NCBI GenBank assembly: GCA_963785725.1 | Contig: CAWAWS010000006.1 | Coordinates: 120,128-184,127, forward strand | Length of the DNA: 64,000 bases | Source of the DNA: an uncultured delta proteobacterium | GTDB taxonomy: Bacteria; Myxococcota_A; Polyangia; Palsa-1104 | Direction of reading: 5' to 3' | Shown: positions 46,087 through 48,737 of the stretch, piece after piece | Layout: each line of letters begins with the position of its first letter | Position numbering within the stretch: the first letter of the stretch is position 1 | Made by a program: the position numbers and the translations under genes | The notes under the pieces: generated by a model | Seen by the model: the letters and a program-made list of their open reading frames with translations, nothing else | What the model was told of the DNA's origin: nothing | Databases searched by the model: none

Positions 46087-48737
46087 CTAGCCGACGAGCG
46101 CGAAGACCCGCTCGAGCGCGGCGTCGAGCTTGGAGGCGTCGGTGCCGCCGCCCTGCGCCATGTCGGGCTTGCCGCCGCCTTTGCCGCCGACGGCGCTCGA
46201 GATTTCGCCGATGATCTTGCCGGCGTGGATCTCGTTCGTCAGGTCGGCGCTGACGGCGGCCACGAGCGCGACCTTGCCGTCGTCGCCGACGCCGCCGAGC
46301 ACGATGACGCCCGAGCCCAGCTTGTCGCGCAGCTGGTCGGCGACCTCGCGCAGCGCCTTCGGATCGCCGACGTCGGCCCGCGTGGCCAAGACCTTGATGC
46401 CGCCGACGTCGCGCACGCCGGCCAAGAGGTCGCGACCGCCGCCGCCCATCGCCATCTTGCGCTTGAGATCCTCGATCTCGCGGCGCGACAGCTTGAGCTC
46501 GTCCTGCAGCTTCTCGACGCGCGCGGCGACTTCGAACGGCGCCGCACTTTGACGCGCTCGGCGGCGCGACCGAGCTCGCCCTCGAGCTTGCGCACGTAGT
46601 CGAGCGCGCCCGCGCCGGTCACCGCCTCGATGCGACGAACGCCCTGCGCGATGCCCACTTCCTGCGTGATCTTGAAGAGGCCGATGTCGCCGGCGCGTCG
46701 CACGTGCGTGCCGCCGCAGAGCTCGACCGAGCGGCCGCCGATGCTCATGACGCGCACCGTGTCGCCGTATTTCTCGCCGAACAGCGCGACCGCGCCCGAG
46801 CTTACGCGCCTCGTCGAACGCCATGACCTCGATCTTGCGAGTCGACGTTGCGGCGGATCTCGTCGTTGACCAAGTCCTCGACCTTGCGCTTTTCCTCGGC
46901 CGTCATCGGCGCGAAGTGCGCGAAGTCGAAGCGCAGGCGATCGGGCGCCACGCAGCGAGCCCTTCTGCGCCACGTGCGCGCCGAGCACCTCTTTGAGCGC
47001 CAGGTGCAGCAAGTGCGTCGCCGAGTGGTTGGCGCGAATGGCGTCGCGGCGCGCTTCGTCGACGGTGAAGATGGCCTCGCCGCCGACCTTGGGCGTGCCG
47101 CGCTCGATGCTGCCTTCGTGGACGATGATGCCGCCCGGCGTCTTCTGCGTGTCGGCGACGACGATGCGGAAGTCGTCGCTCTCGATGACGCCGACGTCGC
47201 CGATTTGCCCGCCCGATTCGCCGTAAAACGGCGTCTGGTCGGCGACGAGCTGGACTTTGGCGCCGCCCGCTTCGTGCAGCCACAGGATCTTGCCGGCCGC
47301 GCGCGTGCCGTCGTAGCCCAAGAACCGCGTGCCGCCGAACTTCTGATCGAGATCCTTGAACGAGTCGGCGATGGCCGCCTCGCCCGAGCCCGCGAACGAG
47401 CCGCGCTCGCGCTGCTCCTTCATCGCCTTGTCGAAGCCCGCTTCGTCGACGGTGAAGCCGCGCTCTTCGGCGATGACGCGCGTCAGATCGGCGGGGAAGC
47501 CGAACGTGTCGTAGAGCTTGAACACGGTCTCGCCCGGCACCGTCGCGCCTTCTTGCAGCTTGCCGAACTGCTCGTCGAGCAGCTTGACGCCGCGATCGAC
47601 GCGTGCGCGGAACGTCTCGTTCTCCGACGCCGAGACCTTGTCGATGAGGCTCTTGATAATCCTCGAGCTCGGGATAGGCCGCCTGCATGTCGGCGATGAC
47701 GCGCGAGCAGGCCTGCGGGAACATCATCGGCCGCGCTGCCGAGCCGCGACGCGTGGCGAATCGCGCGCCGCATGATGCGCCGCAACACGTAGCCGCGCCC
47801 TTCGTTCGAGGCATCACGCCGTCGGCCATGAGGAACGCCGTCGCCGCGCGCGTGGTCGGCGATCACGCGCATCGAGACGTCGTCCTCCGCCGGCGAGTGC
47901 CCGTATTTCTTCTTCGCCGCGGTCGCGATCGTCTCGAACAGGCCGGCAAACAGGTCGGTGTCGTAGTTCGAGCGCACGCCCTGCACGACGCCGCGACGCG
48001 CTCGAGGCCGGCGCCGGTGTCGATCGACGGCTTCGGCAGCGGCGTCAGCGGCGACTCGGCCGTCTGCTGCTCGAACTGCATGAAGACCAGGTTCCAGATC
48101 TCCATCCAGCCCGTGCCGTCCGGCCCCGGCTCCTGCGTCGAACAGCGCGATATCGGGCTTGCCGTCGCCGTACGAAATAGTGGATCTCGGTGCACGGCCC
48201 CTGCGGGCCGGTGTCGCCCATCTGCCAGAAGTTGTCCTTCTTGCCGAGGCCGAAGATGCGGTCGTCGGAGAAGCCGGTGATCTTGCTTCCAGAGCGTGCG
48301 CGCCTCGTCGTCGGGGCCGACGTCGAGCGCCTTCGTCGCCGCCGAACACGGTGACGACCAGGCGGTTCTGGTCGATGCTTCAGCTCTTCGGTCAGCAACT
48401 CCCACGCGAACGCGATGGCGTCTTCCTTGAAGTAGTCGCCGAACGAGAAGTTGCCGAGCATCTCGAAGAACGTGTGGTGGCGCGCGGTGCGGCCGACGTT
48501 CTCGAGGTCGTTGTGCTTGCCGCCGGCGCGCACGCATTTCTGCGACGACGTGGCGCGCTTGTAGCTGCGCTGCTCACGGCCGGTGAAGACGTCCTTGAAC
48601 TGGACCATGCCGGCGTTGGTGAACAGCAACGTCGGGTCGTTTTGCGGCACCAGCGGCGAAGAGCGCACGACTTCGTGGCCGTTCTTTTTGAAGTAATCGA
48701 GGAAGCTCTGACGGAGCGCCTGCGCGGACTGCGACAT
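46087..48737 (-). pseudogene. alaS: alanine-tRNA ligase disrupted by ~14 single-nucleotide frameshifts
   Basis: AlaRS sequence is readable end to end, but only by hopping between all three minus-strand frames (ORF-track fragments 48045..49349, 47863..48537, 47483..48349, 46903..47829, 46239..47540, 46087..46824). It runs from [18 protein letters not shown]...[18 protein letters not shown] at the N-terminus, through [31 protein letters not shown] and CGGTHV, to GKGGGKPDMAQGGG...FALVG-stop. The span is 2651 nt, which is not a multiple of 3. Confidence 0.85.

Follow-up and report, generated by a model that had tools for sequence, protein, structure and literature searches.

A dense, tract-limited cluster of single-base indels in a deposited Polyangia alaS gene is very probably a consensus artefact

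The gene for alanine--tRNA ligase (alaS, encoding AlaRS) lies on the minus strand at 46087..48737 of a 64,000-nucleotide (nt) stretch of high-GC DNA (about 68%) from an uncultured delta proteobacterium (contig CAWAWS010000006.1 of assembly GCA_963785725.1, positions 120,128 to 184,127; hereafter the window), whose nearest relatives are uncultured Polyangia (Myxococcota), and its reading frame is broken there by 15 single-base insertions and deletions (indels). We conclude that the broken frame is very probably not a real biological feature and that a local artefact of the consensus, all artefact mechanisms being taken together, accounts for it. The organism almost certainly has an ordinary, intact, functional alaS, and on our best reading the errors of the deposited consensus do not extend beyond a tract of 1.84 kb within it. 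The extra bases are tied to codon phase and to G and C, and we propose that the indels probably arose at G/C polymorphic sites where a pile-up of reads from two haplotypes was collapsed into a single consensus.

The frame-corrected gene and its indels

Three-frame translation of the minus strand over 46000..48800 shows AlaRS sequence that jumps from frame to frame, and the clean pieces match the TIGR00344 alaS profile at the expected positions. Plain tblastn proved unfit for placing the junctions, its gapped high-scoring segment pairs having crossed frames in high-GC DNA, and a frameshift-aware dynamic-programming aligner was used instead. Alignment to the reference proteins P0001, P0002 and P0003 sets the limits of the deposited gene at an ATG at 48737 and a TAG at 46089..46087; P0001, of 878 amino acids (aa) and the closest homologue of full length, aligns colinearly from Met1 to the stop at 81.5% identity with 14 frame changes and no in-frame stops. 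This bears out the claim of an earlier note on this DNA that a full-length AlaRS can be read here only by switching frame 14 times. Junctions were placed base by base on DNA alignments to intact orthologues at five other loci: L083 (DATBAB010001070.1; 89% nucleotide identity, with the N-terminal 461 codons of alaS intact), L086 (DASZMR010000845.1; 90% nucleotide identity, with the C-terminal 530 codons intact), L081, L082 and L001. The result is an inventory of 13 insertions and 2 deletions (net +11).

Removal of the 13 extra bases and restoration of the 2 missing ones yields one open reading frame (ORF) of 2640 nt, or 879 codons plus a stop, in place of the 881 codons that the earlier note had obtained from 11 insertions less 3 deletions. 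The 879-aa product scores 946.7 bits against TIGR00344 (cut-off 457.05) over profile positions 2-847 of 847; singly, the deposited fragments reach 234 and 56 bits, under the cut-off. Its Pfam domains are complete (PF01411 tRNA-synt_2c, 2-551/552; PF07973 tRNA_SAD, 1-44/44; PF02272 DHHA1, 2-99/102), and the editing-site motifs are readable in the corrected translation as HSATH (HxxxH) and CGGTH (CxxxH). Protein searches returned best identities of 80% for the full length and 88% and 92% for fragments, and AlaRS identity to Polyangia orthologues is 80-92%. Apart from the integrity of the deposited ORF, every feature tested is that of a normal AlaRS family member. A conspecific alaS was not found by a degenerate-pattern scan of metagenome contigs, the best match in a scan of genome contigs had 67% identity, and no exact match to proteins of the window turned up in the assembly index.

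The broken frame is also present in public databases. Exact protein entries exist for alaS fragments of 230 aa (48737..48045), 308 aa (47829..46903) and 120 aa (46449..46087), and all three derive from one NCBI/ENA contig of 414,108 nt, to which the entries for neighbouring genes belong too. Because these out-of-frame products are public entries, the frameshifts belong to the deposited record, and a planted or synthetic corruption of the window is ruled out.

We describe the indels from the 5′ end of the gene, all on the minus strand, with extra bases in brackets and missing ones as underscores. The N-terminal 120 codons, which encode the class II catalytic core (48378..48737), are clean and in a single frame at 95% aa identity to L083. 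The first indel is an extra C at a codon boundary outside any homopolymer (48377; CTG AAG [C] ATC), lacking in L083, L081, L082 and L001. A second extra C, at 48329, falls between positions 2 and 3 of a Gly codon as a GGC/GGG doublet (GG[C]G CTC); pairwise alignment puts this extra base at 48335. Orthologue alignments place a further C at 48285 (TGG AAG [C] AAG) and a G at 48136 (TTC GAC [G] CAG) and, together with the frameshift-aware alignment, a C at 48170 (TTC GTA [C] GGC). Each deletion is read as the loss of a wobble base, that of an Ala codon at 47990..47991 (GCG GC_ GTC; GCC or GCG in relatives) and that of a Pro codon at 47809..47810 (ATG CC_ TCG; CCG in relatives), and between them an Arg codon holds an extra C at 47846 (GCG CG[C]G GCG; CGG or CGC in relatives). 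Beyond these, an extra G at 47725 (GCC GAT [G] ATG) is again placed by orthologue alignments, and an extra C at 47649 (CAA GAG [C] CTC), for which 47648 is equivalent, is the sole insertion in a 2-base run.

A clean stretch of ~231 codons follows within the tract (46954..47648; TIGR00344 positions 344-581), in a single frame, and its sole gap relative to L086 is an in-frame one of 9 nt. It is succeeded by an extra G in a Leu codon at 46953 (TCG CT[G]C GTG; CTC in L086), an extra C at 46837 (GAC TCG [C] AAG; TCG AAG in L086, TCG CAG in L081) and, from orthologue alignments, an extra C at 46800 (CGT AAG [C] TCG). At 46540..46544 MAFFT leaves a 2-nt gap, which we interpret as two doublets 4 nt apart, formed by an extra C at 46544 and an extra G at 46540 (GTG[C] GGC[G] CCG; GTC GGG CCG in L086); so divided, the sequence would read VGPF as in L086. 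The C-terminal 150 codons and the stop (46087..46539; DHHA1 / C-Ala domain) are clean and in a single frame. The earlier note had placed its 14 junctions by hand, and 13 of them lie within about 10 nt of ours; the missing base that it put at ~46543 is better read as the two extra bases at 46544 and 46540, because the relatives have the same length there.

All 15 indels therefore lie in 46540..48377, a tract of 1838 nt with 8.2 indels per kb. If 15 events were placed uniformly in the gene, both of its ends would stay clean with a probability of only P = 0.004, and the affected unit is therefore an internal 1.84-kb tract and not the gene as such. A division of the tract into two indel clusters was considered and set aside, the 696-nt clean gap not being significant (P = 0.14), and it was treated as one tract.

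Codon phase and competing explanations

The site of removal is unique for 12 of the 13 insertions, which lie outside homopolymers (P = 0.0014). The inserted base is G or C in every case (P = 0.007) and always adjoins a wobble base (P = 0.005): 10 insertions stand at a codon boundary and 3 within a codon, always between its second and third positions and never between its first and second. In 11 of the 13, the extra base and the wobble base beside it make up a G/C doublet (P = 2e-6). The deletions, too, can each be explained by the loss of a wobble base; the one at 47810 is unambiguous, and that at 47991 lies within a CC run, where the base lost may be that of position 2 or of position 3. The earlier note had argued that the insertions do not look like homopolymer errors, and this stands, but it is not an argument for biology, as G/C wobble doublets fit a consensus artefact. 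Of the mismatches that separate this lineage from its relatives, those of C/G form the commonest class (229 of 643 against L083 and 34 of 116 against L085), and 76-81% of C/G mismatches are at wobble positions. A co-occurring strain at the divergence of L085 (96.6% identity) would be expected to show ~18 C/G differences in 1.84 kb, where 15 indels are seen. Mutation and raw sequencing error are blind to codon phase, whereas natural polymorphism is not, and it is for this reason that we propose a consensus mechanism based on haplotype collapse.

By this mechanism, reads of two co-occurring haplotypes that diverge by a few per cent would have been mixed in the pile-up over the tract. At sites with a G/C transversion between the two, nearly always wobble positions, a consensus or polishing step may have chosen neither allele over the other; both alleles written in tandem would give the 13 doublets, which are read as insertions, and neither allele written would give the 2 deletions. 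Transitions, which read-error models accept as plausible miscalls, would have left no trace, since one base would have been chosen at each such site. Deletions dominate the errors of nanopore reads, in which transitions also outnumber transversions 3-5-fold (PMC8486125), so that a G/C mixture would be hard to explain as miscalls if nanopore was the platform. We infer both the presence of two-haplotype reads and the origin of the doublets in a polisher from the pattern of sites. The recruitment of reads from another species to a conserved gene was also considered as their source and is disfavoured, since PilT and EF-Tu, which are more conserved than alaS, are clean, and so is the N-terminal part of alaS, its most conserved. 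We found no published description of the writing of both alleles in tandem in the literature examined, and we infer the link to known haplotype-collapse errors.

Several points weigh against haplotype collapse. The mixture itself would be a reconstruction from the consensus, and a simple likelihood with independent errors gives no clear preference for a doublet over a single allele. No indel falls in the central 696 nt of the tract, though ~7 G/C differences would be expected there, and the mechanism as proposed would leave unexplained why, in at least 64 kb of DNA, a single tract was affected. Three AAG[C] doublets would imply Lys/Asn alleles, unless the extra base is paired with the first base of the next codon. 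Codon reasoning entered into 3 of the 13 placements (48329, 46544 and 46540), and without these the doublets number 8 of 10 (P about 1e-4). Finally, there are sites at which the extra base fits the allele of relatives (e.g., C+ATC versus ATC/CTC, CG[C]G versus CGG/CGC and GTG[C] versus GTC), but over all sites it does so in about half, as by chance where wobble columns vary and not significantly, and we have not counted this as evidence.

An artefact of another cause is rather unlikely, its main form being a poorly supported patch (such as a gap filled from long reads, a long-read bridge that joins short-read contigs, or a stretch that stayed unpolished or had very low coverage) with residual read errors that have no link to polymorphism. 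Such a patch would suit errors that are limited to one tract of 1.84 kb, at about 0.8%, and leave its flanks clean. On long ENA/NCBI contigs, alaS genes split by frameshifts are common, and single-base consensus indels in long-read genomes and metagenomes, as measured by IDEEL-type tests, are known to split conserved genes (PMC9262707; proovframe preprint 10.1101/2021.08.23.457338). Residual long-read errors should, however, ignore codon phase, which 13 of 13 insertions touching a wobble base and 11 of 13 forming G/C doublets do not, and the bias of nanopore errors towards deletions (PMC8486125) contrasts with 13 insertions to 2 deletions here. No accompanying substitution errors are seen at conserved residues. 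The avoidance of homopolymers (12 of 13) also sets the window apart from two control loci in other long-read assemblies, L087 (5001..8565) and L088 (5001..7422), which have 1-2 frameshifts per alaS, in L087 in A3-A4 runs (GAAAAG, GGAAAG), and in which neighbouring genes such as murB are split as well, in the ordinary dispersed pattern of long-read error. The alaS of the window does not have the features of ordinary homopolymer-type long-read noise.

That the indels are physically in the DNA of the organism, which would call either for destruction by indels only, at G/C wobble sites, together with a second alaS, or for massive recoding, we consider highly improbable. Of the three readings that the earlier note had left, our analysis supports that of a consensus corrupted locally, contradicts that of a copy inactivated very recently and finds nothing in favour of something stranger. 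Because AlaRS is essential, very recent inactivation requires a functional second alaS elsewhere in the genome; we judge it very unlikely, even though the frameshifts are present in the deposited sequence and the search for a second copy covered only 64 kb of the genome. The protein stitched together from the segments violates none of the 191 columns that are invariant in 118 homologues and 1 of the 294 conserved at >=95%, where the median of the 118 functional homologues is 2. Against L083 the gene has a dN/dS of 0.20, which does not differ between its two parts (0.216 where it is shredded, 0.209 where it is clean), and a dS of 0.27, similar to that of its neighbours. A relative-rate test with L081 as outgroup found 51 window-specific and 59 L083-specific changes (P = 0.50). 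Base substitutions outnumber indels about ten-fold in bacterial mutation accumulation, from which at least roughly 100 extra substitutions would be predicted for 15 indels. The observed 15 come without detectable substitution load, branch acceleration or stop codon, they avoid both ends of the gene, their codon-phase pattern is not expected of real mutations, and alaS keeps the conserved operon position that it has in four relatives with an intact gene. The total lack of substitution load contradicts a decaying pseudogene. Expression of the gene by recoding, whether through repeated programmed +1/-1 frameshifting, quadruplet decoding or deletion editing of the RNA, is hardly credible. In 10 of the 13 insertions the extra base could serve as the fourth base of a quadruplet that starts with a sense codon (AAGC three times; GACG, GAGC, GATG, GTAC, GTGC, TCGC and GGCG once each), and in the other 3 it precedes the wobble base. 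The 15 sites differ, and no shared slippery motif, stop or rare-codon context or stimulatory element was seen at them, although no formal motif search was made; two would need the opposite shift, with 2-nt codons, and one gene of about 50 in the window is affected. We know of no bacterial system with recoding at such density, and nothing that we found supports a stranger biological mechanism.

Neighbouring genes and other features of the window

The statement of the earlier note that the neighbours of alaS have intact frames is confirmed by comparison with related loci. Nineteen genes of the syntenic locus L082 each match the window (36.8-57.7 kb) in one frame, and only alaS is split. Gaps within neighbouring genes are all multiples of 3 against L083, and within genes other than alaS are multiples of three or locally compensated against L086; against L085, at 96.6% nucleotide identity, single-base gaps occur only outside coding sequence. 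Comparison of 2.9-19.7 kb with the syntenic JGI contig L084 likewise gives gaps within genes that are multiples of 3, with three exceptions: gaps of 4 and 2 nt that compensate each other, a low-complexity block of 156 nt and, at the last codon of one gene (Vut_1), a gap of 4 nt. The compensated pair lies in a VWA-domain gene (4951..4970), where gaps of 4 nt and 2 nt (sum 6) are 15 nt apart and may be either a locally compensated frameshift or an alignment artefact. Comparison of ~35 kb of coding sequence outside alaS with L082, L083, L084, L085 and L086 gives no uncompensated frameshift, against 8.2 per kb in the tract. EF-Tu, whose gene is more conserved than alaS, is intact, with no indels (59629..60825; 398 aa), and makes a useful control.

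Frame switches on the same strand were also flagged by a hidden Markov model of periodicity in GC content at third codon positions (GC3), which was used as a frameshift finder and which also mixes up strands. As candidates for further frameshifts these were rejected, all of those checked being gene boundaries or a low-complexity repeat tail. The tail belongs to a rhodanese-domain protein (347..1195, minus strand), is rich in Ala, Gly, Ser and Pro and contains a tandem repeat of roughly 11 residues (GATAAPSGGAQ-like, ~350..700); it misled the model into a frame switch at 613, where no frameshift is needed. A MauE/DoxX membrane-protein gene follows (3..~330, minus strand). Within the 64-kb window, neither repeats nor a second alaS fragment were found.

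The gene upstream of alaS (48746..50212, minus strand) ends 8 nt before it and is intact, its L082 orthologues matching in one frame and its gaps against L083 all being multiples of 3. It is a single ORF of 488 codons here, encodes 469 aa in L083 and corresponds to two genes (204 + 257 aa) in L082; its middle (~49260..49710) is of low complexity, with several in-frame length differences and atypical codon-position GC, and it has no family match. Downstream, a PilZ-domain gene (44549..45802, minus strand) is likewise intact in the orthologue comparison and served as context and control, and the spacer between it and alaS has a 102-nt insertion relative to L086 (45975..46076).

Elsewhere, a classical cluster occupies 58972..61250, with tRNA-Thr(TGT), tRNA-Tyr, tRNA-Gly(TCC) and tRNA-Thr(GGT) followed by tuf and tRNA-Trp, and beyond it the frame model and ORF sizes suggest secE, nusG and ribosomal-protein genes. 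Relative to L084, the window has ~1.3 kb extra between a kinase gene and PQQ-repeat genes (11580..12960), which holds a sigma-54 activator paralogue (tblastn match 11986..12951), and at 17937 it is without a 1545-nt stretch that holds a 492-aa gene in L084. A PtsP-like protein (29768..31414, plus strand) has GAF, PEP-utilisers_N and mobile PEP-utilizers domains, and PEP-utilizers_C was found neither in that ORF nor in the frames around it; a similar protein is encoded nearby in L082. On the minus strand, 31400..33400 contains several ORFs without family matches, except for a TPR protein (32816..33397), and a frame change near 32862 may be either a gene boundary or a frameshift.

Significance and comparison with known systems

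The biological weight of the finding is small. The alaS of this lineage is normal, and what the record needs is a flag or a correction, not annotation as a pseudogene. Its value lies in quality control. A dense, tract-limited cluster of non-homopolymer G/C wobble doublets is a recognisable signature, by which a consensus artefact, probably due to collapsed strain variation, can be told apart from the ordinary homopolymer noise of long reads and from true gene decay, and which can be detected from sequence alone by frameshift-aware alignment and a codon-phase test. Such tracts can lower the completeness estimates of metagenome-assembled genomes and create false calls of the loss of an essential gene.

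Compared with bacterial AlaRS as described by TIGR00344, the window product is alike from end to end in its three domains, its editing motifs and the operon position that it shares with relatives. Bacterial AlaRS is encoded by one uninterrupted ORF, whereas the frame of the window alaS is broken 15 times and the record as written encodes no AlaRS. The need for a frame change to obtain the full-length product recalls programmed ribosomal frameshifting, as in prfB and dnaX, and transcriptional slippage. Such systems, however, use one defined slippery site per gene, in contrast to 15 heterogeneous sites here, in both directions and without a motif. Decaying bacterial pseudogenes, such as those of reductive genomes, resemble the window alaS in carrying multiple frameshifts in a once-functional gene, but they also show relaxed dN/dS, excess substitutions, stops and a longer branch, all of which are missing from the window alaS, and its indels are phase-specific. 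Indel errors of long reads split a conserved gene into fragments that are called as truncated proteins, as has happened here. The usual errors of this kind are linked to homopolymers, biased towards deletions and spread over many genes; those of the window number 15 in 1.84 kb and 0 elsewhere in ~35 kb of coding sequence, and are biased towards insertions, tied to wobble positions and not of the homopolymer kind. Where an assembly collapses strain or haplotype heterogeneity, the errors are local, as they are here, and occur at sites like those of natural polymorphisms, as do the G/C wobble indels of the window, whose number fits a strain about 3% diverged.

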